Shown piece after piece: positions 3,001 to 14,034 of a stretch of DNA of 64,000 nucleotides. The notes under the pieces were generated by a model that saw only the letters and a list, made by a program, of their open reading frames with translations, had not been told where the DNA came from and did not search any database. The DNA is from Hyphomicrobiales bacterium (lineage in GTDB: Bacteria; Pseudomonadota; Alphaproteobacteria; JAPOUT01), in contig JAPOUT010000091.1 in assembly GCA_026708545.1 (NCBI GenBank), positions 946-64,945 on the forward strand, read 5' to 3'. Both the position numbers and the translations under genes were made by a program. Positions within the stretch are counted from its first letter, which is position 1. Each line of letters opens with the position of its first letter.

Positions 3001-4317
3001 CCTTGCGACGTTCCCGAAATTGTCGGCGGGGTGACCGTCGCCGCGCCGCTCAAAGCATAGTCGCCGGCATCCGCGCTCGAACGCGCCGTCGCCGCAAACA
3101 CGACCGTAACCTCCCGCTCCAGAGGTTTGTCAAAATCGAACCTCATGGTGAACGGGTCATCGCCCTCCGCGAGCGTTGCGATGGAAGTCTCAATCCGCGC
3201 GACCGCGGGAATAATATCGAAGCGCTCTTCGTAGAGAACGCGCTTCTCGCGCTCGACCAGGCGCCACAAGTCCGGCACCGCCACGCGTCCGCCGCCGCTG
3301 TCGCTGCCTTCGAATCCGGGCAACGAGAAGCGGAACGCCAAGCCTGCGTTCCAGCGCGAGCCCAGGGAGTCATCGGTGTTATGATGCTCATAGCCGCCTT
3401 GCAGGAAGACCCCCGGAAACACTCGGTATTCCCCGGTAAACTGGTGGGAGGTGTGCCAATCTCTTCTAGCCTGCTCGCGCTCTCCCTCAAAACGCCAAAC
3501 GCCGAGAGAGCCGTCGAGGCGGACTCTGTCCAGCGCCAATCCAAGACGGAAATCCGCGCCTTGCAGGGCCTGTTCTTCAAACCCCTCCCGGCCCTTACGC
3601 CAATCGCTCAGCGGATGGTAGTAATTCACATTGGCTTGCAAAACCCCGCTTTGCGCATCCACGCCAACGCCCAGACGACGGTGTCCGCGCCTGAAGTCGT
3701 AGTCGAAAAACAGCGAGCCTCCCACGGCGGTGTCTTTGTCAAGATGCGTGCGAAGGACAAGACCGAAGTTGGCATCAACGCGCTCGGCGCCCTCAAGCCC
3801 GTTCCAGATGACCACGCCGGGCTGCATAAAAAGAGCCGATCCGGTTCCGTCGCCGTATTCCTCGCCCCAAACAGGGAAAACGGCATCAATCTCTCCGTGA
3901 ACGCTTTCATCCAACACCCACGAAATACTCGAGTCCAGACGGAAGCGGTCCTCGAAGAGCGCAATGCCTCCGCTGCGAACGGCGTCTTCAATGGTATCGA
4001 CAAGCATGCGCGAAGCAGTGTTGCGCAACGATTGCCGCGCACATTCGGAGTAGTCGCGCCGGCCGGCATCATTGAGCGCGCTGGTGCTGCCTGTGCCGGT
4101 GCCAATGCCGTCGCCGGAGTTGTAACGATCGAGGGGAATGAAGCCCTGCGTGTCACCGGCATCATGACAGCCGAGAACGCCGCTCCACAGCCTTTCCAGC
4201 GTTTGCGAAGATTTAGAAAAAAGGGTCTCGTCCGCTTGCGACGACGCCGTCACCGCAAACAGAAGCGATATAACCGGAAACAAAAATGTTCTTATTGGAA
4301 CTCTCACACCAACCAAC
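1..4317 (-). CDS. Inverse autotransporter (type Ve, intimin/invasin-family N-terminal beta-barrel) with long Calx-beta-like repeat passenger. It is partial, because the 3' end lies beyond the window start. It has an apparent +1 frameshift in the signal-peptide region and may be a pseudogene.
   Basis: Manual translation of the minus strand from TTG 4317/GTG 4308 gives a signal-peptide-like N-terminus (VGVRVPIRTFLFPVISLL) that hits TAA at 4213-4215. The frame starting around 4253 reads FAVTASSQADETLF..SECARQSLRNTASRMLVDTIEDAVRSGGIALFEDRFRLDSS..FFDYDFRRGHRRLGVGVDAQSG..NYYHPLSDW.., which is collinear with the N-terminal beta-domain of the 7538..11590 ORF. Spot checks at ~1980-2040 and 61-179 show the same frame stays open. 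No stop-terminated ORF of 60 aa or more is listed in that frame anywhere in 1..4290, consistent with an open frame running to the window edge. The long + strand ORFs here (for example 1929..4442) are R/G-rich antisense artefacts. Confidence 0.6.
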
Positions 4318-4977
4318 TCTCATTACCAAATCAAAAATCAAACCGAAATCCCCAAAAAATCCGACTTTTCTTCACCTCGCCTGCATCCCCAAGATGCGGG
4401 GATAGTGGCAAATTTGACGAGTTTTGGCAAGAATTTTTTTAACAAACCTTGTTTTAACGGGCTGAACCTTGGTAACAACGGGTTTTTCGAGGCTTTCCGG
4501 GAAGGGAAAACAGCCGGAAACCCGAACCGAAACGTGGCGCTTGACCGGGGCGCCTGGTGAAGACACTCGATGAAGCCCTGTGCCTCAATGACTCCTTTTT
4601 GCGGAATTTTATCACCGCTTTGCTATGCCCGTCATGCACGGAAACGGAGCCCGACAAAGAAAACGAAGACGGCAAAGACGCCCCCACGGATACCCGCCGG
4701 ATGCATGGGTTGATTTGAATTGCCGAACGGGGTTGGACGAAAAACGAATATTGAGGGATAGCCCAAGATTACCAGATGGATAGCGAATTGGGAGAAGAGG
4801 GGCTGGAAGAACGCAAAGAAGAAACTGGTAGAGAATGCCGACCTATGGAAAAGGTTTCGGTGGGTATGTCGCCGGAATCGCTAGCTACGCAGGAACACTC
4901 CCGTAAAAGCAACCACCAAACTCAAGAAGGCAACATAATGGCCAGTCCAATCATTAACCTCGTGGTAATGGATGTGG

Positions 4978-5130
4978 TTATGGAATTAACGTACTTTCCA
5001 TATTCGCACGAAATTCTGCGTTACTCGCAAGAAGTCGATCGATAGCAGATTCGTTCTTCGCAAGGGTTGCTTCGTTTTCGGTTTTCGCTTGTTCTCTCTG
5101 GGCTTGTGAAACTCTCATATCTGCCTCCAT
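4978..5130 (-). CDS. Hypothetical small coiled-coil protein (50 aa)
   Basis: ATG at 5130 is preceded by GGAGG with a 5-nt spacer. The frame stays open for 50 codons in AT-rich DNA and reads MEADMRVSQAQREQAKTENEATLAKNESAIDRLLASNAEFRANMESTLIP. It sits 111 nt downstream of the 2-TM gene on the same strand. The supplied track does not list it because it is under 60 aa. Confidence 0.25.
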   Translation of the reverse strand: MEADMRVSQAQREQAKTENEATLAKNESAIDRLLASNAEFRANMESTLIP

Positions 5131-5241
5131 TTTGGCCTCCAGCGATTCGAGTTGATGCTCCAGTTTCTCGAATCGGCGGTCTGAATTTTTATTGGTTCAT
5201 ATACCCCCTAGCCGAGCAGCAAATCTCTTACAAGGAAACGG

Positions 5242-5646
5242 TTAGGAGGCATTATCGTCATCTGTATTTATGTCACCCTTGAAATTGATTTTTGATCTTT
5301 TCATCAAAGAAGTCGTAAAATTCACAAACCAAAACATCTTCCAATACACGGAAAGAAAAACGAGATCGATAATAAGAAATGTAAAAAGAGCGAAAGCATG
5401 AAACCAATTTTCCATAAAGGAAGATCGAAAAAAGTAGATGTAGATGGCTTCAAGAACAATAGCAACCATGAAAAGCTTGCCTGAACATTTACTAAGCCGT
5501 TCTCTTTCTAAATCTACATCATTTCGTAAACTGTTAGCATAAATATCAACCTCTTTTTTACCAAAGAGGTTTTGTCCAAGTTCAATCCAAGCTTTTAAAT
5601 CTTCTGGATTTAATTGTTCGTTATCCGGACTCTCCGAATCTCGCAT
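5242..5646 (-). CDS. Small membrane protein with an acidic soluble N-terminus and two predicted TM helices. It is the candidate toxin partner of the upstream Panacea-domain gene.
   Basis: 134-aa ORF. Its ATG at 5646 overlaps the stop of the upstream gene (5621-5623) by 26 nt, which suggests translational coupling. The hydrophobic segments are FMVAIVLEAIYIYFF and WFHAFALFTFLIIDLVFLSVYWKMFWFV. It lies in the AT-rich islet. Confidence 0.5.
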   Translation of the reverse strand: MRDSESPDNEQLNPEDLKAWIELGQNLFGKKEVDIYANSLRNDVDLERERLSKCSGKLFMVAIVLEAIYIYFFRSSFMENWFHAFALFTFLIIDLVFLSVYWKMFWFVNFTTSLMKRSKINFKGDINTDDDNAS

Positions 5647-6070
5647 GATACTCGATTACAATATCCTCTTGTGATATTATTCTGCCTCTTTCTCCAGGCT
5701 CATAAGCTTTATACCATGCGCCTTCTTTCCAGTGTGAAATGTTAATCATATCGCCAGCGTCTAAATCATCCATTGCGTTATACATATTTTCCAAATATGT
5801 AAATTCTTTATCGCGGCTTTCTAAACCTTTTTGAAAAAAGAAGACAGAGCTTTCTATCGGATATTTTCCGAACTGCTTAACATGACGGTATAAAGACGGT
5901 AACACAGGCCCATATTCCCACGCTTGGAAATTTTCACCTATCAACTTCTTCTTTTCCCTCCCAGAATAGAACATGTGTGCGAAGTATAGAACTTTCTGCA
6001 ACCGCAAATTGGTTATAGTCCAACTTGATATTTCGCAGAGCGTTTTCCCCGCCACAAGTGAATCGATCAT
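5621..6070 (-). CDS. Panacea-domain (DUF4065, SocA/GepA-like) protein, a putative antitoxin
   Basis: 149 aa. The motif ITNLRLQKVLYFAHMF...FQAWEYGPVLPSLY matches the hallmark K/RLQKLLYFAQ..W.yGPV..lY core of DUF4065. A GAGGTG Shine-Dalgarno sits 6 nt before the ATG. It lies immediately upstream of, and overlaps, a small TM protein gene. Confidence 0.6.
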   Translation of the reverse strand: MIDSLVAGKTLCEISSWTITNLRLQKVLYFAHMFYSGREKKKLIGENFQAWEYGPVLPSLYRHVKQFGKYPIESSVFFFQKGLESRDKEFTYLENMYNAMDDLDAGDMINISHWKEGAWYKAYEPGERGRIISQEDIVIEYHARFGESG

Positions 6071-6152
6071 CTTTCACACCTCAATTATAGACAGACCGGA
6101 ATCCGTTCAATTATTTAGGACCCCTTTTGTTCCTGTATAAATACGATAGGGG

Positions 6153-6181
6153 ATTATATGCGAAAGTGCCATGTTAGGCAA
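6153..6181 (-). promoter_or_regulatory. Putative sigma70-type promoter for the Panacea/2-TM operon (-35 TTGCCT, 17-nt spacer, -10 TATAAT)
   Basis: Read on the minus strand: TTGCCT at 6181..6176, then 17 nt, then TATAAT at 6158..6153, about 80 nt upstream of ATG 6070. The -35 overlaps the tnpB stop codon. Confidence 0.3.
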
Positions 6182-7298
6182 CTCGCTTAAGATGGACAGG
6201 CTCCGCCTCAACAGGCTTCAACGCTTTGTCTAACGACTCGACCCCGCGAGCCAATATGTTCTTGGCGGCATTGGTATCCGCATGCGCCCGGTATCCGCAA
6301 GCACAGGCAAACCCGCGCTCTTGGCGTTTCCCTCTCGCTCCACACGCATTGCATGTCTGCGAGGTGTATGCGGGATTAACATTAATCACCCGCATTTTGT
6401 AACCCAATTTCTGTTCCAAACTCCCCCAGCACGATTCCAATATCCCTCTGGTAAGGTTTTTATGTCCCTTACGCGTCATCTTTTTCGTTTGCAACGTTTC
6501 TAAAACCACGGTGCCATAATCGTTGGCTATTGTCCTGCTTGCATGATGCGCCCAATTCAAACGGATATTCGCCATCTTGGCATAAGCCCTGCCCGCCCGA
6601 CTCTTGGATACCAAATACCGCTTTGAACCCTTTCTACGCCTCGCCATTTGCCGCTGATACCTTGTCCGTTTGCGAATCAACGAATCGACCTGTGGAAGTT
6701 CAATGATTCGATTATCCGACAAGGCGATATTTCCTACATTCCGGTCAACACCAACCAACTTGGTATTTTGATTTTGTTCGGTCTCTGTCTTGTAAACCAA
6801 ATACACATACCATTTGCCGTTCTCATGCTTTACACGTCCCGAAACGGCTTTGCAACCCCTATAAGGATTGTTTCCGCTCAATCCCATCCACCCAATTCTT
6901 TGGATGTATATGGCATCGGAATTCCTATTGACACGAAAAGTTTTATTAGTTGCCAATGCAAACGATAAGGTTGTGTTGTATCTTCCCCGAAACTTTGGCA
7001 ATCCCGAATCCTTATGCTTAAAAAACTTCTTATAGGCCGTTTCTATCGGCTTCAACGAGTCCCGCACGTTACCCGCTGAATATTGCAACAACCACGGGTT
7101 TTGATTGCGAAGCGTAGTAAACCATTTCCCAAGCGTATAAAAACGATAATCGCATTTCCCCTTCCATTCATACTCGTCCCTAAGTTTGGATACAGCCTGA
7201 TTCCAAACCCACCTACAAGCCTCTGCAGTGCCAAATAACATAGCGTTTTTAGCCTTCGTTTTCGGATGCAATCTAAATCTTACTACTCTGTGTTCCAT
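6174..7298 (-). CDS. tnpB: IS200/IS605-family transposase accessory protein TnpB (OrfB; RNA-guided RuvC-like nuclease)
   Basis: 374 aa with an OrfB_IS605-like N-terminus. It has the RuvC-like motif VGVDRNVGNIALSD, a C-terminal zinc finger CNACG..CACG, and HADTNAAKNI (RuvC-III). No adjacent tnpA (Y1 HUH) gene is visible. Local AT-rich composition. Confidence 0.85.
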   Translation of the reverse strand: MEHRVVRFRLHPKTKAKNAMLFGTAEACRWVWNQAVSKLRDEYEWKGKCDYRFYTLGKWFTTLRNQNPWLLQYSAGNVRDSLKPIETAYKKFFKHKDSGLPKFRGRYNTTLSFALATNKTFRVNRNSDAIYIQRIGWMGLSGNNPYRGCKAVSGRVKHENGKWYVYLVYKTETEQNQNTKLVGVDRNVGNIALSDNRIIELPQVDSLIRKRTRYQRQMARRRKGSKRYLVSKSRAGRAYAKMANIRLNWAHHASRTIANDYGTVVLETLQTKKMTRKGHKNLTRGILESCWGSLEQKLGYKMRVINVNPAYTSQTCNACGARGKRQERGFACACGYRAHADTNAAKNILARGVESLDKALKPVEAEPVHLKRVA

Positions 7299-7537
7299 AG
7301 TCCCTATTTAGGGGAAACTTGGCACTTTCATATATATCCCCATACGATACATTTATCTAAATCAAATGCAACAGCCCCAAATTCGGCAATTACCGGCGGG
7401 TTTTTTGTGTATGTGATTCGAATCAGGCTAGCCCGTATTCCATTCACCTTGTCGACTTCGCTCATACGACCACCCAAGAATGTCTCGTTGATCTCCGTAG
7501 TGCCGGTCAGTTCGGAGAGAATGTTCTTCAGGATTGC

Positions 7538-10500
7538 TCACTCAGTGACAATGTCGATGGCATGGGAAGCCTGCCCGCCAATCTCCCAGCCCGCCGAGAT
7601 GTTGTCGTCCTGGCCTGCGGGTTTGCTGATGGCGAGGGTGGCCTGTGTATTCCCGGTTGCCGCGCTGCCGTCGGAGGATATGACGGTGAGAGTGACTTCG
7701 GGGGCCCCCACATCAACGACAAGGCGGTTGTTGGCGGCGTCGTACGTGCCGTTGGCTACGGAGTCGATGGTAACATCGCCGGTGACATCAAGGTCGAGAT
7801 TGAAAGCGGACGAATGCGGAAGATCGACGAGGATTTTGACCTTGATGCCGTCGGCCGCGGTTGTGGCGGTATTCTCAAGGGACGAAGACGAATCTTCAAA
7901 CGCAATCGTGTTGTCGTTGGCGGCAATGTGGATGGTGAGTTGGTTTGCATTGGCATCAATCTCCCAGTCATCCGAGGGAAAACGCGTCGTGTGCGGCTCG
8001 ATGGTGATGGTGTGTTCTTCCCGAAGTTCGGGATGTTCGTCTCCCCGGGGGTCTATGCTGAGTAAAATGTTTCCGTTTGGATGGGCTTGTCCCGCGGCAA
8101 TCGAGAGCAACTTGGACGCGGAACCGAACGAGCCGTCGGCCGCATCGGCGAAGTTGATGGTGAAGTCGTTGCTGTTTTCATCGTCGCCGAATTTCAGCGC
8201 GATGGGTATAATTGCGGGAACGGGACGCGTAAACGGGGCGCCTTCGGGCGTGCGCAACCGCAGCACCGTGCTTGCGGCAACCCCGTCCTCGGTGACCTCG
8301 ATCGGCACCGACGATGCGAAGCCGATTACGTTTTTCGGCTCAACGGGGTCGCCGCCGGGATCACCGCCAGTGCCGTCGTCGGCATCGTCATCGACAATGA
8401 CGAGGGTGTGGGTTATCTGGCTGCCGAACTGCACGCCCGGCGGCAGCCTTGTCGATGTCAAGGTGAAAACGATCTCCCTGCTGCCTTCAACATCGGAGTT
8501 GTCGGCGACGTCAATGCCGAGATTCGAAGCCGCCGAACTCACGGCAAAACGATGCGGAGTCTCGATGCCCGGGCCGCTCGTGCCCCGAATCTTCGCGTCA
8601 CCCGTCGCACCGTGCGCCGTAATCATTACGTCAAACGTCGTACCTAAAATCCCGGTTACGGAAATCGGAATGTCGAACGAACTGCCCTCGGTCACGCGCG
8701 ATCCCGATCTCGCAAACGCAACCCTTCCCCGGTTCGGTGGTTCGTCGTCAACAATCGTGACCTCGAGGAAACTCGAAGAAGCTCTCGTAGTGCCGATCCT
8801 CCAGCCGGACGGAACGCCCGGATCGCCGGCCGCGCCGGACTCGCTGACTTCGAAAATAACTGTCTTGTCGCCGTCGGCATCGGGATTGTCCCGCGGCACA
8901 ATCGTAACCTCGATCTCCTGTGCGCCCTCTCCGCCGTGCGCGGGAATCTCCAGTATCCCGTCGTCGGACGAATACGTGCCGCCCGATGTCACCGAATACA
9001 TGTAATCCCCCTCCTCTCCCGCCGAGGGCTGAAGCACCGCGGTCGAGTCGTCCGTGGGCAGCAGGCGCAGCCGCACCGGTTCCTCAAACGGACTGTTCAC
9101 AACCAACTTCACCGTCTGCGGACCCTCATCCTCTTGAATTTCAAGACTCCTGGCGGGATTCCAAACAACGGTGTTTTCATTTGCCGCAATCTCAATGCGC
9201 ATCCGGTCGGGTTGCGTGTCCAGGGGAATTCTCAGTATCGACCAGCCCGTCGGCAGCGGACGGCGGGAACTTTCACGGATGTTGAGGAAGATTTCTTCGG
9301 CGAACTCGGCAACGCCGTCCCTGACGGCGGTGAAGGTAAAATTATACGAATCCGTGTTGGCGGGAATGACCACATCGCTCGGGAACTGAACCTCGTCCGG
9401 ATCGGCATCCGCCGGACCGCCGGGATCGAAGGAGGCCTCCAATGCCAGAGTTATCGGCACGGGCGAAGGATCAAGGGCGATTTCGATTTCGACGGGGACG
9501 CCTTCCTCGACATCCGTCTCAAGACGCGCCGGCTCCGGATCGAGCGGATCGAAGGCGCCGAAGGCGATGTTCTTCTCGCTCGCGGTAATGGTGACGGTCT
9601 GGCTTGAAGGCACGCCAAGCCGCGCAACATCCTCATACTCGGCGGGAAGCGTAATGCCGAGGATGAGTGTCTCGGGATTCTCGGGAGTGTCGTCGTTGTT
9701 GACATTGACGGTAATCGAAGCGCTCGTCTCGCCGGCGGGAATGGTCAGCGTGCAATTTGAAACATCCGCATCGCAGTCCAGCGGCGGGCTGGAAGGGTCG
9801 GCGGGATTTGGATATTGGAAAAACCAGTCGTTCGGCGCGCTGCCGAAGTCCGCCGTGCCTCCCGTGGTAAAACCGATTGTGATATCTTCCGGAAGCCCCT
9901 CTTCCCCGCCGATGCGGACCTCCATGGTCATGGGAGCGCCGCCTTCTTCTGGAACGGTGGCCGAGCCTTCGTAAGCCAGCGTGACGGGCGGCGCGAGATG
10001 CCGACCGATGGTGAACACCTGCGTTGCATCGCGCACGGCAAGAAGCCCGGCATGTTCGGGCGGAACAACGAAGGAAACCCGGATCGTTTCCGTGCCCTCG
10101 TAATCCCCCTCGTTGTGAACCATAACGCGCACCTCGACCCTTGTATCGCCCGCAGGAACGGTAACCGCGCAAGGCGCATTCTCCGAAGCCTCCGCGCACT
10201 CGGTCATGCCCGCATGATCCGGACGCGCCGTCTCATTGGCGGGAACAACCCGGTAACCCATCTGCCAGTCGTCGGAATCGGGATCGGTCCCGTAGTCCGC
10301 CGTCCCGCCGCCGACAAGATGCAGCACGATGTCCTCCTCAAACGCCTCGCTCAACACGGCCGTCATTTGCACCATGCTCCCCTCGCCGAGGTTCCTCTCG
10401 CCCTCGTAACGCAACGAGACTCCCGGCCCCCGCTCATATTCTTCATAGAGAATTCGCTTCTCGCGCTCAACGGCACGCCACAAATCCGGATCCGGAAGCT

Positions 10501-11545
10501 GCCAGCCGCCGGCGCCCGTCGCACCATCCAAATTCGGCAACGAGAACTCGAACGACATCCCCGCGCTCCAGCGCGGACCCAGCGACTCCTCGTCCTCGTG
10601 GTGCTCATACCTCCCCTCCACAAACACGCCCGGCAGCACGCGGAAACCGGCATCAAACTCATAACTCGGATGCCACTGTGTTTGCGAGCCGTCTTCGCCC
10701 TCGAAGCGCCAGTATCCTAGCGAACCGCCCAGGTGCAGACGGTCGCGCCTGTACGCCAAATGCACATCCAGTCCGCGCAACGTCCTTTCGAAATAAGGGA
10801 TGGCGTTATCCTCGCGGCCTTCCAACTGGTTGGTGAGAGGATGGTAATAGTTGAAGGCGCCGTGGAACATCCCGCTTTGCACATCTGCCCCGATGCCCAA
10901 GCGCGAATGTCCGCGCCTGAAGCCGTGGTCGTAAAAGATCGATCCCCCCGCCACCAAACCGCTCGCCAGGTTTGAGCGGTAAACAAGCCCCAGGTTTGCA
11001 TCGGTGCGCACCTCTTCACCCAGCCCCTGCCAAAACACCGCACCCGGCTGAAGGAACAGTGCATTCCCCTCGCCCTCCGGGCGCCCGCTTGACCATATCG
11101 GCAGCACAACATCCACTTCGCCCTGGACACTGCTGCCGAAAACCCAGTTAAGCGACGAATCAAGCCGGAAACCCTCTTCGAAGACGGCAAGACCTCCCTG
11201 ATGAAGGACATCCTCAATAGTGTCAACGATTATGCGCGAGCCCGTATTTCGCAACGCCTGTCTTCCGCATTCGGAATAGTTGCGCGACTCCTTCGCCGGG
11301 ACGGAGCCGCTTTCAAGCGCTTGTTCGACGGCGGCATCATCGTCCCCGCGCACGGCACAACGCAGAGCGCCGCTCCACACCTGCTTGAATGCCGCATTCG
11401 GGCGCGCAAACAGGGACTCGTCCGCATGCGAATCCGACGACGAAGACAGGCCCCCGAACGAAAGCGCCAATATCGCAAGCGCAGGCATTGCCACGGCGCG
11501 CACAAGGCTCCGGCGGAGAACCAGCAAAGAGACAATACTATCCAT
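7538..11545 (-). CDS. Inverse autotransporter (type Ve secretion; intimin/invasin-like N-terminal beta-barrel) with a ~950-aa passenger of Calx-beta-like repeats
   Basis: One uninterrupted ORF. The listed start 11590 is TTG, and the likely start is ATG 11545 (MDSIVSLLVLRRSLVRAVAMPALAILALSF, a signal peptide). Residues ~200-400 read FYDHGFRRGHSRLGIGADVQSG..NYYHPLTNQLEGRE..LGYWRFEGE..DLWRAVEREKRILYEEY. This resembles the intimin/invasin IAT beta-domain (FYDxxxxxxHxRxGxG...NGY..LSGW; ..DLVQRNNNIILEY). The passenger has repeated GGGTADYG / TGGTADFG / TVTIT motifs typical of Calx-beta-like folds. Confidence 0.75.
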   Translation of the reverse strand: MDSIVSLLVLRRSLVRAVAMPALAILALSFGGLSSSSDSHADESLFARPNAAFKQVWSGALRCAVRGDDDAAVEQALESGSVPAKESRNYSECGRQALRNTGSRIIVDTIEDVLHQGGLAVFEEGFRLDSSLNWVFGSSVQGEVDVVLPIWSSGRPEGEGNALFLQPGAVFWQGLGEEVRTDANLGLVYRSNLASGLVAGGSIFYDHGFRRGHSRLGIGADVQSGMFHGAFNYYHPLTNQLEGREDNAIPYFERTLRGLDVHLAYRRDRLHLGGSLGYWRFEGEDGSQTQWHPSYEFDAGFRVLPGVFVEGRYEHHEDEESLGPRWSAGMSFEFSLPNLDGATGAGGWQLPDPDLWRAVEREKRILYEEYERGPGVSLRYEGERNLGEGSMVQMTAVLSEAFEEDIVLHLVGGGTADYGTDPDSDDWQMGYRVVPANETARPDHAGMTECAEASENAPCAVTVPAGDTRVEVRVMVHNEGDYEGTETIRVSFVVPPEHAGLLAVRDATQVFTIGRHLAPPVTLAYEGSATVPEEGGAPMTMEVRIGGEEGLPEDITIGFTTGGTADFGSAPNDWFFQYPNPADPSSPPLDCDADVSNCTLTIPAGETSASITVNVNNDDTPENPETLILGITLPAEYEDVARLGVPSSQTVTITASEKNIAFGAFDPLDPEPARLETDVEEGVPVEIEIALDPSPVPITLALEASFDPGGPADADPDEVQFPSDVVIPANTDSYNFTFTAVRDGVAEFAEEIFLNIRESSRRPLPTGWSILRIPLDTQPDRMRIEIAANENTVVWNPARSLEIQEDEGPQTVKLVVNSPFEEPVRLRLLPTDDSTAVLQPSAGEEGDYMYSVTSGGTYSSDDGILEIPAHGGEGAQEIEVTIVPRDNPDADGDKTVIFEVSESGAAGDPGVPSGWRIGTTRASSSFLEVTIVDDEPPNRGRVAFARSGSRVTEGSSFDIPISVTGILGTTFDVMITAHGATGDAKIRGTSGPGIETPHRFAVSSAASNLGIDVADNSDVEGSREIVFTLTSTRLPPGVQFGSQITHTLVIVDDDADDGTGGDPGGDPVEPKNVIGFASSVPIEVTEDGVAASTVLRLRTPEGAPFTRPVPAIIPIALKFGDDENSNDFTINFADAADGSFGSASKLLSIAAGQAHPNGNILLSIDPRGDEHPELREEHTITIEPHTTRFPSDDWEIDANANQLTIHIAANDNTIAFEDSSSSLENTATTAADGIKVKILVDLPHSSAFNLDLDVTGDVTIDSVANGTYDAANNRLVVDVGAPEVTLTVISSDGSAATGNTQATLAISKPAGQDDNISAGWEIGGQASHAIDIVTE

Positions 11546-11646
11546 GAACCATCGCACCGATACAAAAAGGGCGGCTATATGCCTAAGCAAACAGAATCTC
11601 TAGAAACCCTACGCCATGCGATAGGTTTTACCCGAAATTGTGATTC

Positions 11647-11952
11647 TCATTTTAAAATTCCCAATTTATCCATCCCGTATATCAAACTTATCAACCAACA
11701 AGGAGCGACAACAATAAAGGACATAACTATTAGCCAATCAGGTACCGGCAGAAAATAATTCAAATATGGATACGACAACCTAACCGTATCTTCATACATC
11801 CGATATTTCTCATTTATCAATTCTAATAAAAAAGGCAATGATGAAAAGGCGGTTAATAACCAGGTTGCTTTATTGATTATTTTACGAAAAAATGTAATTG
11901 ACGAGTCTAATGCCGCCTTCAACAACAGCCCACCCTCCGAACGCGTTAGCAA
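11647..11952 (-). CDS. Hypothetical small membrane protein (101 aa, 2 predicted TM segments) in the AT-rich spacer
   Basis: ORF located in the AT-rich 630-bp region upstream of the inverse autotransporter gene. Codon usage is atypical and it may be spurious. Confidence 0.2.
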   Translation of the reverse strand: MLTRSEGGLLLKAALDSSITFFRKIINKATWLLTAFSSLPFLLELINEKYRMYEDTVRLSYPYLNYFLPVPDWLIVMSFIVVAPCWLISLIYGMDKLGILK

Positions 11953-12224
11953 CCAAAAAACATATCGTTTTTAACACTTTCCTTCTCCTTCTTGTCGGTT
12001 TCCACCACCTGCACAGGGGCGCGAATCACTCCATGGACTAGTATAGGAACCCTCACGCGCTTTGCAAGAAAAATCTTCTTCGTCATTTCTACCTAAAGTA
12101 TACAACTGCCCAAAAGACGAACGCAATGCGAAATTACAGATTTAACCGCTTTTAGCAAGGGTTTAGGCTTAAAATCATCCGAAGTTTCACCGGGAGCGGC
12201 ACACACAAAGAGTGCAAATAACCA

Positions 12225-13655
12225 CTAGAAATCGACGCGCATTCCAACATTTGCACGATATTCCCGCACCTCGTTTCCGCGCGAAAAACCGAAATCCGCA
12301 TTCACCGAATAGCCGTCCCACCACTCGTAGTCCATTCCGAAGCCGAACTCGACTATCGGCGACTCAATCACGCTGGTCAGTTCCGCGCCCGAAACCCCGG
12401 TAACCGTCTCCCCGTCAAGCGGAAACCGCAAGTCAAGTCCCGCACGGATGCCTCCCCGGACGTCGGTCTCGTCAATCCACTCGGTATCCGCAACAATGCC
12501 GAAACGGGCCGTGAGTGTCTCTCCGTCCACCACTACAACAGTCTTGTTGTCGGGAGCGGTGAAACCATCGAAGTCAACATCGCCCCAAATCAGTTGCGCC
12601 GAGGGAATTAAAGAGAGGCGTCCCGCACGCAACCGATAGCCCCACTCGCCGGCCGCTGAAAATGTTTCTGCTTCGTTATCGACGGCAATAACCTCCCCCG
12701 GGGAGGAAATGTCCGAGGTTATGGCGGCATACTGCGCGCGCGTGTCAATGTAGAAATTCTCGTCCACCCATGACACATTCAACCCGCCGGAGAACAGTTC
12801 CGACTCAATGCTCCCGTTGCCCGACGCCGCCGAAACATCCGCGTCCGACGAGCCCGCCGCAATGTTTGCGCCGAACACCAAACCTCCCGCAACGGGAGCG
12901 TCAACGCCGAAGCGCATGCGTGCATCCATGACCTCATAGCTCGCCCCGGTCGTTGAGACCTTCGCCTCCGCATCCCAAATCCCCACATCCGCCTTCCCCC
13001 AAAAACCAACGCCGTCTTCCCTGACCCAGGAGCGTCCGTTGCGCGACTGCCGCAGGGATTCCAGGGATGAAAGTGACGCCAGCACCGCCGGATAGGATTC
13101 AAAAATCGACGCGCGATGCGAGAAACCCGTGTTTGCGGCAATGCTTCTGTTCCCGTCGGCAGGTTCGAGCGTGAGGTTGGAAGCGTCCATGACGAATTCA
13201 CCCGCCTCGAAAGCGTCAGAGCGCGAGTTCCCCATGACGGTGTTGAAAGTGACTCCATTGCCGGAGGTTTTGGGTGCACCGCCCCTGCGCGTGTTGTTGA
13301 TACGCCCCTTTAGTTCCGCAGTGCTCCCGTTCGAAACCGCTTCCGCCGTGACGGCCATTGCACTCCCTTCGGAATGCTCCTGACCGTCGACTCCGAAATT
13401 GCCGTTTTGCGTGACCGTCAAGGTCCGGCCCAAGGCCGCGGTGATCATTATCGGGGAATCGTTGTAACCATCCTGCCGCCTGGAACAGACGTAGACTCCA
13501 TCCGAATTAATAGAGGTGCACGTGCCTGCGCTTGCGGGCAGGGACATCGAAAGCACCGCGCCGAGCGCAACCGCCGACGTGCACGCCAGAAACGTTACAA
13601 AAGCGGCAAGTCCACGTCTGATTTTACGCAACGACACCTTCTCGCAGTGGTTCAC
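12225..13655 (-). CDS. Classical autotransporter (type Va) with a short passenger and a C-terminal beta-barrel translocator domain
   Basis: The C-terminal ~270 aa has alternating beta-strand patterning and a terminal ...YRANVGMRVDF, an aromatic C-terminus typical of autotransporter beta-domains. The likely start is GTG 13655, preceded by GGAGGG, giving the signal peptide MVNHCEKVSLRKIRRGLAAFVTFLACTSAVALGAVLSMSLPASA. The listed ORF start 13769 is the maximal ORF. Mature N-terminus GTCTSINSDGVYVCS. Confidence 0.7.
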   Translation of the reverse strand: MNHCEKVSLRKIRRGLAAFVTFLACTSAVALGAVLSMSLPASAGTCTSINSDGVYVCSRRQDGYNDSPIMITAALGRTLTVTQNGNFGVDGQEHSEGSAMAVTAEAVSNGSTAELKGRINNTRRGGAPKTSGNGVTFNTVMGNSRSDAFEAGEFVMDASNLTLEPADGNRSIAANTGFSHRASIFESYPAVLASLSSLESLRQSRNGRSWVREDGVGFWGKADVGIWDAEAKVSTTGASYEVMDARMRFGVDAPVAGGLVFGANIAAGSSDADVSAASGNGSIESELFSGGLNVSWVDENFYIDTRAQYAAITSDISSPGEVIAVDNEAETFSAAGEWGYRLRAGRLSLIPSAQLIWGDVDFDGFTAPDNKTVVVVDGETLTARFGIVADTEWIDETDVRGGIRAGLDLRFPLDGETVTGVSGAELTSVIESPIVEFGFGMDYEWWDGYSVNADFGFSRGNEVREYRANVGMRVDF

Positions 13656-13871
13656 GAACTCCCTCCAGGTTATGAATCTCTCGGACGGTGCACAGGAGAT
13701 TTTTACACGGCTCAAGAAGATTTCCGAGCATGATTCATATGAAGGGAAACCTGCGCAGAAATCTGACAAGAGCAGAGTCTACCAAAATGACCACACGCTT
13801 GCAACTTCCTCCCTGGAAGGCTCTATGCCCCTTAAAAAAACAAACCTACAATAGCAACGCTGACACCGCCA

Positions 13872-14034
13872 ATGGCTATCAAAACCAAGGATATAGTCAA
13901 ATTCATAGCAACGATGTCGGTGGGAATCGTTGTAGTGTTAGGCGGGTTCATTGCGTTCTTGCAATTTTACAAATTAAGACACAAACGTATCCACCAACCA
14001 CCCATAACCGAAAGGAGACGTTAGCGCGAATACT
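13872..14034 (+). CDS. Hypothetical 54-aa single-TM peptide (very tentative)
   Basis: ATG 13872 to TAG 14034 reads [50 protein letters not shown]. There is no obvious Shine-Dalgarno. It lies in the intergenic region between the divergent autotransporter genes and its 3' end overlaps the rnhA-like remnant. Confidence 0.15.

Follow-up and report, generated by a model that had tools for sequence, protein, structure and literature searches.

The two overlapping minus-strand genes at positions 5242-6070 of the window, i.e., the whole 64,000-nt stretch of contig JAPOUT010000091.1 from a Hyphomicrobiales bacterium that was analysed here, most plausibly form a chromosomal type II toxin-antitoxin module of the PanAT kind, to which we assign a probability of roughly 0.75. 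The first gene, panA, codes for a Panacea-domain antitoxin and the second for a putative membrane toxin of the PanT type. Judged by profile comparisons, the latter is a very divergent relative of the catalogued predicted PanT cluster T32 rather than a wholly new family. The argument is carried by the domain assignment of PanA, the arrangement of the two genes, the conservation of their pairing and the remote homology of the putative toxin to a PanA-linked family.

A preliminary description of the locus, made from the sequence alone, had assigned the PanA protein to the Panacea (DUF4065) domain and proposed a hidden Markov model (HMM) search as a check. This search gives a significant match to PF13274 (SocA_Panacea) with an E-value (E) of 5.9e-17 and 63 bits (gathering threshold 25.7), covering profile positions 1-113 of 113, and phrog_1281 is matched as well (1.8e-31). 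The AlphaFold2 model of PanA has a mean predicted local distance difference test score (pLDDT) of 94.9 and a predicted template modelling score (pTM) of 0.91. It arranges helices around two short strands (residues 49-51 and 54-56), a layout that agrees with the alpha1-alpha7/beta1-beta2 description of Panacea (Ernits et al. 2023, PMC10440598). The PanA clade retains without exception the motif W-x-Y-G-P-V as well as Tyr53, which neighbours strand 2, and His113, situated where a helix ends; both Tyr53 and His113 recur in the PanA of phage S1249 (cluster T12). By position only, these two residues match Y56 and H120 of Bartonella PanA, where neutralisation is lost with the exchanges Y56A and H120E (Ernits et al. 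2023, PMC10440598). A Foldseek search of the PanA model against the PDB yielded nothing below E = 3, and PDB sequence searches gave no match for PanA or the toxin; a solved Panacea structure does not appear to exist.

With regard to gene architecture, both open reading frames (ORFs) are recovered on the minus strand at the positions described earlier, with the antitoxin gene first and an overlap of 26 nt (5621-5646). The pair also sits, as described, in an islet of low GC content (0.35-0.41 over 5200-6200 vs. 0.58-0.64 in the flanks). HMMs of the PanA family and of the partner family find this single pair in the whole 64-kb window. Kurata et al. used FlaGs to select two-gene loci with an intergenic distance of at most 100 nt and an architecture that is conserved across species; here, the genes overlap by the said 26 nt and the partner is conserved.

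The conservation of the gene neighbourhood, another check proposed in the preliminary description, is seen at several distances. All six closest PanA relatives (47-70% identity, marine metagenomes) are followed by an overlapping partner of 121-138 aa with a soluble head and two helices, the overlap being 26 nt in 4/6 and 41 nt in 2/6 cases. An alignment scan with PanA over one genome per GTDB species resulted in 80 loci of 36-50% identity, mostly from Alphaproteobacteria. When a hydropathy rule is applied, 45/80 loci show an overlapping downstream ORF of 100-135 aa with exactly two hydrophobic segments. An HMM of 49 partners finds its match directly downstream of PanA in 73/80 loci and nowhere else in the 6-kb loci; since 42/80 loci fed sequences into this HMM, only the remaining matches are independent. 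Over dozens of genera, the two genes stay paired and in the same frame relative to each other. With the same HMM, a partner is found directly downstream of PanA in 29 viral contigs from IMG/VR (L104-L136; PanA 32-44% identical).

The preliminary description had also held that toxin homologues never lying next to antitoxin-like genes would speak against the pair. Seen from the toxin side, each detectable homologue (P0010-P0013) adjoins a PanA. Furthermore, the pairwise divergences of PanA and partner are correlated (Spearman 0.50, with 0/200 label permutations as high), and the partner evolves faster than PanA (mean identity 25% vs. 44%). In a more remote case (PanA 36% identical, Paceibacteria), the partner is unrelated and not a membrane protein, which is the partner swapping expected of Panacea. 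Inside the same PanA clade, such swapping is exemplified by three Binatia loci (L032, L033, L035; 3438-3926), in which a PanA of 46% identity is joined to a 162-aa non-membrane partner with a 4-nt overlap.

The 134-aa protein shows the acidic head and the two strongly hydrophobic helices that had been noted before. With 13 acidic against 9 basic residues, its head has a net charge of -4, and Kyte-Doolittle windows above 1.6 delimit two hydrophobic stretches (about residues 54-76 and 80-108). The structure prediction suggested for it, i.e., an AlphaFold2 model from a 5-sequence alignment, reaches a pLDDT of 59.8 with helices at 14-27, 30-74 and 80-119. Homology searches with the toxin return little: there are zero matches among the models of Pfam, NCBIfam, PADLOC and PHROG, a word-indexed sequence search recovers only the toxin itself, and a scan of JGI metagenomes with the window toxin and its homologue on contig L001 gave no confirmed relative. 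An exhaustive phmmer search of 1.84 billion representatives found one relative (48% identity), and a profile search returned already known subfamily partners only. Compared to the L001 homologue, the head is 56% identical vs. 40% for the rest of the protein. Because it is thus the best-conserved part between the two closest homologues, the head appears to be translated and under selection, which supports the 134-aa form.

At the profile level, the protein is linked to the PanA-adjacent partners. When an HMM is built from 45 PanA-adjacent two-helix partners, the window toxin reaches 18.6 bits and its subfamily 19-36 bits, and 0/54 reversed or shuffled controls score. When the seven-member subfamily (window included) is aligned with the 45-partner set, hhalign reports 97% (E 1e-10, 90 columns), compared to 4-5% for reversed and at most 0.2% for column-shuffled profiles. 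The signal is confined to toxin residues 58-134, i.e., the two-helix region. The partner from a Bordetella phage matches both the subfamily profile and that of the larger set. Two species that are listed under cluster T32 are also in the partner family alignment, namely Pelagibacterium montanilacus (locus L031; listed as strain CCL18, WP_127144915.1) and Paracoccus isoporae (locus L053; listed as strain DSM 22220, WP_090521056.1; PMC8832971).

The resemblance to T32 extends to the standalone PanA partner, the antitoxin-first order, the overlapping genes and the mostly alphaproteobacterial distribution as well as to the protein itself (100-135 aa, charged head, two hydrophobic helices, short tail). 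A difference is that identity to typical members does not exceed 10-20% for the window toxin and its marine subfamily of six. A plain phmmer search from the window toxin fails to reach the family. The T32-like family is without a Pfam or NCBIfam model. The preliminary description had called the toxin unrecognised and maybe undescribed; the first part stands insofar as neither a named family nor a model covers it, while the second has to be amended given the profile link to the catalogued cluster T32.

How such a pair may act is suggested by its validated counterparts. The head-plus-transmembrane PanTs of clusters T3 (Escherichia coli) and T12 (Bartonella apis) depolarise and permeabilise E. 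coli, their own PanA acting as the neutralising antitoxin (Kurata et al. 2022, PMC8832971); the validated examples are WP_000019185.1 from Shiga toxin-producing E. coli (STEC) O31 for T3 and WP_077993242.1 from Bartonella apis/choladocola for T12 (node D11). The window pair shares with them the head-plus-hairpin architecture, a standalone Panacea antitoxin and the antitoxin-first order, and several members of these clusters show similar overlaps of -26 or -29 nt. By analogy in architecture and context, the window toxin would work like the T3 and T12 toxins, to whose clusters it is not assignable.

Within the toxin-antitoxin reading, panA and the toxin gene would be co-transcribed as one minus-strand operon with panA first. 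Translation of the toxin would probably be coupled to that of panA and lower than it, since the toxin gene begins within panA (26 nt of overlap) and has only a weak ribosome-binding site of its own (GAG, 4 nt ahead of the ATG). The toxin is expected to insert as a helical hairpin with both ends cytoplasmic; in its free state, it would depolarise the inner membrane or render it permeable. The standalone PanA would block it directly, attaching to the acidic head in the cytosol and to the helix preceding the first membrane helix. We infer this role of the head by analogy with the Bartonella PanT_D11:PanA pair, in which the standalone Panacea protein neutralises directly and the predicted contacts involve the N-terminal region of the toxin and a short helix before its membrane segment (Ernits et al. 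2023, PMC10440598).

The PanAT repertoire thereby gains a very divergent branch, and the conserved pairing shows a single PanA clade in stable association with a single family of head-plus-two-helix membrane proteins across many Alphaproteobacteria and their prophages. Toxicity and neutralisation data for any family member would help to annotate hundreds of proteins that are now called hypothetical. For the genome at hand the meaning is modest: the two giant adhesin genes enclose what is probably a module for addiction or exclusion.

Several observations weigh against the toxin-antitoxin reading. The window toxin family shows no HMM matches to the T12 and T3 representatives and hhalign values of 0.6-10%, where phage-borne single representatives were used in place of the Bartonella and STEC O31 sequences (D11S_2262 of Aggregatibacter phage S1249 for T12 and the PanT of Escherichia phage PhiR47_1, which is probably T3 given its annotation and 22-nt spacing). 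In architecture, i.e., a head plus a hairpin, these two representatives agree with the window toxin. Cluster T32 (pT38) is itself a predicted one that Kurata et al. mark as 'notest' (Dataset S1; 2022; PNAS 119:e2102212119; PMC8832971). The toxin head alone gives no profile signal against the T32-like family. Also the hallmarks of this family are missing in the window toxin, i.e., [ED]-R-F before helix 1, an Asp in the middle of helix 1 and L-A-x-R-x-G-V after helix 2. At the respective positions, the window toxin has G-K-L, Y and L-S-V-Y-W-K-M; because these most conserved motifs are missing, we regard it as a divergent branch. The structural model of the toxin is of low confidence, and promoter-like sites in the region are not in excess (3 vs. 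2.9 expected from shuffles). Finally, Ernits et al. (2023, PMC10440598) report ten predicted toxin-antitoxin pairs that showed no toxicity in E. coli.

Among the alternatives, a role in phage defence survives best; we consider it possible, if rather improbable, and it is compatible with a toxin-antitoxin module, which it would refine. Here, PanA would be a sensor that frees the membrane effector upon infection, resulting in abortive infection or superinfection exclusion, and a sensory role of Panacea has indeed been proposed (Ernits et al. 2023, PMC10440598). The 29 viral contigs that carry the same PanA clade together with its partner fit this view. So do the Bordetella avium phages vB_BaM-IFTN2, 4, 5, 6 and 7, which encode a PanA of this clade (32-44% identical; L092:2495-3315): in vB_BaM-IFTN6, the one Bordetella phage examined, a T32-like partner lies directly downstream of PanA, and the pair adjoins the holin and lysozyme genes of the lysis cassette. 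Such frequent prophage carriage suggests addiction or phage exclusion. On the other hand, the defence models of PADLOC match neither protein (PADLOC-DB v2, zero families with either query up to E = 1), and the window copy is located between adhesin genes, outside of any prophage or defence island.

A further conjecture, which we rate as slightly less probable still, concerns the seven marine sponge- or coral-associated pairs that form the subfamily. This subfamily might have swapped the ancestral toxin head for an unrelated acidic domain while keeping the hairpin; it would then be a PanT type of its own, with a separate interface to PanA or a separate trigger. As the pair is found beside autotransporter or inverse-autotransporter adhesin genes in two different metagenome-assembled genomes, it might also stabilise variable surface-protein loci, or be co-regulated with them, rather than being a free-standing selfish module.

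Clearly less likely than both is that the downstream ORF is non-toxic, i.e., that it serves PanA as a harmless membrane anchor or partner or is the remnant of a decaying gene, with the conserved pairing due to some function other than toxicity, or, as a variant, that only a 75-aa form starting at Met60 is made. To look at natural variation, the window was compared with conspecific contigs that encode an identical PanA. The toxin DNA is intact and equal to that of the window in 7/10 of these contigs, which come from different samples, and two others show one or two missense changes; this stability argues against decay. Evidence for decay comes from an allele on the 3.77-Mb contig L095 (L095:6425-6742, corresponding to window 5646-5330), which has the changes C54G, F97L and G124D as well as the nonsense mutation W106*, the latter cutting the toxin within predicted transmembrane helix 2. 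The PanA of L095 is 100% identical at the protein level with a single synonymous nucleotide change. In this single lineage, the alleles may reflect a loss of the toxin with the antitoxin kept, as would fit a toxin-antitoxin pair.

The 75-aa variant draws on the gene annotations: gene callers report a 75-aa product from Met60 in the five contigs L094, L097, L098, L099 and L101 (6602-6829 or equivalent). Independent toxin inactivation in these contigs was considered and rejected, as they share the DNA sequence of the window and the gene caller simply chose another start site; public annotations of the window toxin are thus inconsistent, since the 75-aa calls sit on DNA identical to the 134-aa ORF. 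The stronger conservation of the head also speaks against the short form. While the harmless E. coli pairs reported by Ernits et al. can be cited for a non-toxic ORF in general, the pairing and frame conserved over dozens of genera and the agreement of the architecture with validated membrane PanTs favour a toxin.

Least probable by our estimate is a type VI mechanism as in SocAB of Caulobacter crescentus, where Panacea delivers the toxin to ClpXP: the best NCBIfam match of PanA is indeed the SocA antitoxin model (NF047745, E 7.2e-24) and SocA shares the DUF4065/Panacea domain (PMC8832971), but its 84.4 bits are far under the 190 required of an equivalog, PanA is paired with a two-helix membrane protein instead of a soluble, DnaN-binding SocB, and direct binding is to be expected here given that the PanATs tested by Kurata et al. 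show complex formation typical of type II (PMC8832971) and that the Bartonella toxin is neutralised directly (PMC10440598).

The putative toxin may also be compared with HokB (type I) and the Rosmer toxin RmrT, i.e., small proteins with C-terminal membrane helices whose expression collapses the membrane potential and which served as comparators in the studies of Kurata et al. (PMC8832971) and Ernits et al. (PMC10440598). These are controlled by an antisense RNA (Hok) or an ImmA-type partner (RmrT) instead of a Panacea protein, and the window toxin differs from them by its soluble head of 57 residues.

Coordinates of the module and its surroundings are compiled in Table 1.

Table 1. Features of the panA/toxin locus and its neighbourhood (window coordinates)
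Feature	Position	Strand	Remarks
panA	5621..6070	-	ATG start; 149 aa; standalone Panacea (DUF4065) antitoxin, no extra N-terminal domain
panT-like gene	5242..5646	-	ATG start; 134 aa; putative membrane toxin: head, two-helix hairpin and short tail
Toxin head, residues 1-57	5476..5646	-	acidic, soluble; predicted PanA-binding region
Predicted transmembrane helix 1, ~residues 58-76	5419..5475	-	Kyte-Doolittle >1.6; model helix 30-74
Predicted transmembrane helix 2, ~residues 80-108	5323..5409	-	Kyte-Doolittle >1.6; model helix 80-119
Shine-Dalgarno GAGGTG	6077..6082	-	6 nt ahead of panA ATG; read from sequence
Proximal promoter-like site	6084..6110	-	predicted, read from sequence; TTGAAC (6110-6105), 15-nt spacer, perfect TATAAT (6089-6084)
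tnpB-only insertion sequence (IS) element	6143..7343	-	1,201 bp, without tnpA; 72 nt upstream of panA; outward promoter-like site 6181-6153
Giant PF11924 adhesin genes	7538-11590 and below ~4190	-	inverse-autotransporter domain

The expression signals of the earlier description hold only in part. Both the Shine-Dalgarno sequence GAGGTG and the perfect TATAAT with its -35 element exist; however, the TATAAT ends 1 nt upstream of the Shine-Dalgarno sequence, such that the two cannot share one mRNA, because the transcript would begin in or after the Shine-Dalgarno sequence. In addition, this proximal pair goes unreported by the consensus promoter scan, since its spacer is 15 nt. The sole promoter-like site that the scan reports upstream of panA is TTGCCT-17-TATAAT (6181-6153), which lies inside the right end of the IS and faces panA. 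Given this position, the outward site of the IS could change panAT expression. A terminator-like hairpin at 5571-5548 within the toxin ORF was rejected as it is at chance level (1 vs. 1.8 expected).

Downstream of the toxin gene, the minus strand contains a 50-aa ORF (4978-5130) that is charged and coiled-coil-like, has no Pfam match and figures among the gene calls of several conspecific contigs. A polymorphism at 5138 is found just upstream of it.

As described previously, the neighbour of panA is a solo tnpB in a surface-protein locus. The gene 6174..7298 codes for TnpB (NF040570, 1.1e-60), tnpA is missing, and PF11924 genes flank the region. An Rfam scan of 4200-7700 gave zero matches, i.e., no model of a TnpB-associated RNA was matched. 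The window and most contigs carry the IS, but contig L095, which is 97-98% identical elsewhere, lacks it. The empty site in L095 (around 5906) reads AAATGTATCGT^GTTTATACAGG, and TATCGT is found at both IS junctions. Because it is missing from the otherwise near-identical L095, we regard the IS as a recent polymorphic insertion outside of the module. Without the IS, the pair fills a low-GC gap of about 2 kb between the two giant inverse-autotransporter genes.

Transposase genes are also seen close to homologous pairs. In all three longer metagenomic contigs with such pairs, genes of IS1595-family DDE transposases are located about 0.2-1.2 kb away (L001:1936-2502, L003:6637-7785, L005:4955-5473). 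In a different Hyphomicrobiales metagenome-assembled genome, a related pair (L187:3268-4359) directly follows an autotransporter gene (PF03797). The location beside surface-protein genes in two such genomes may be a coincidence or a locus preference. Within the window, more low-GC patches (0.37-0.46) between high-GC genes are observed at 11600-12100 and 13600-14000, which may be other small accessory insertions in this adhesin-rich region.

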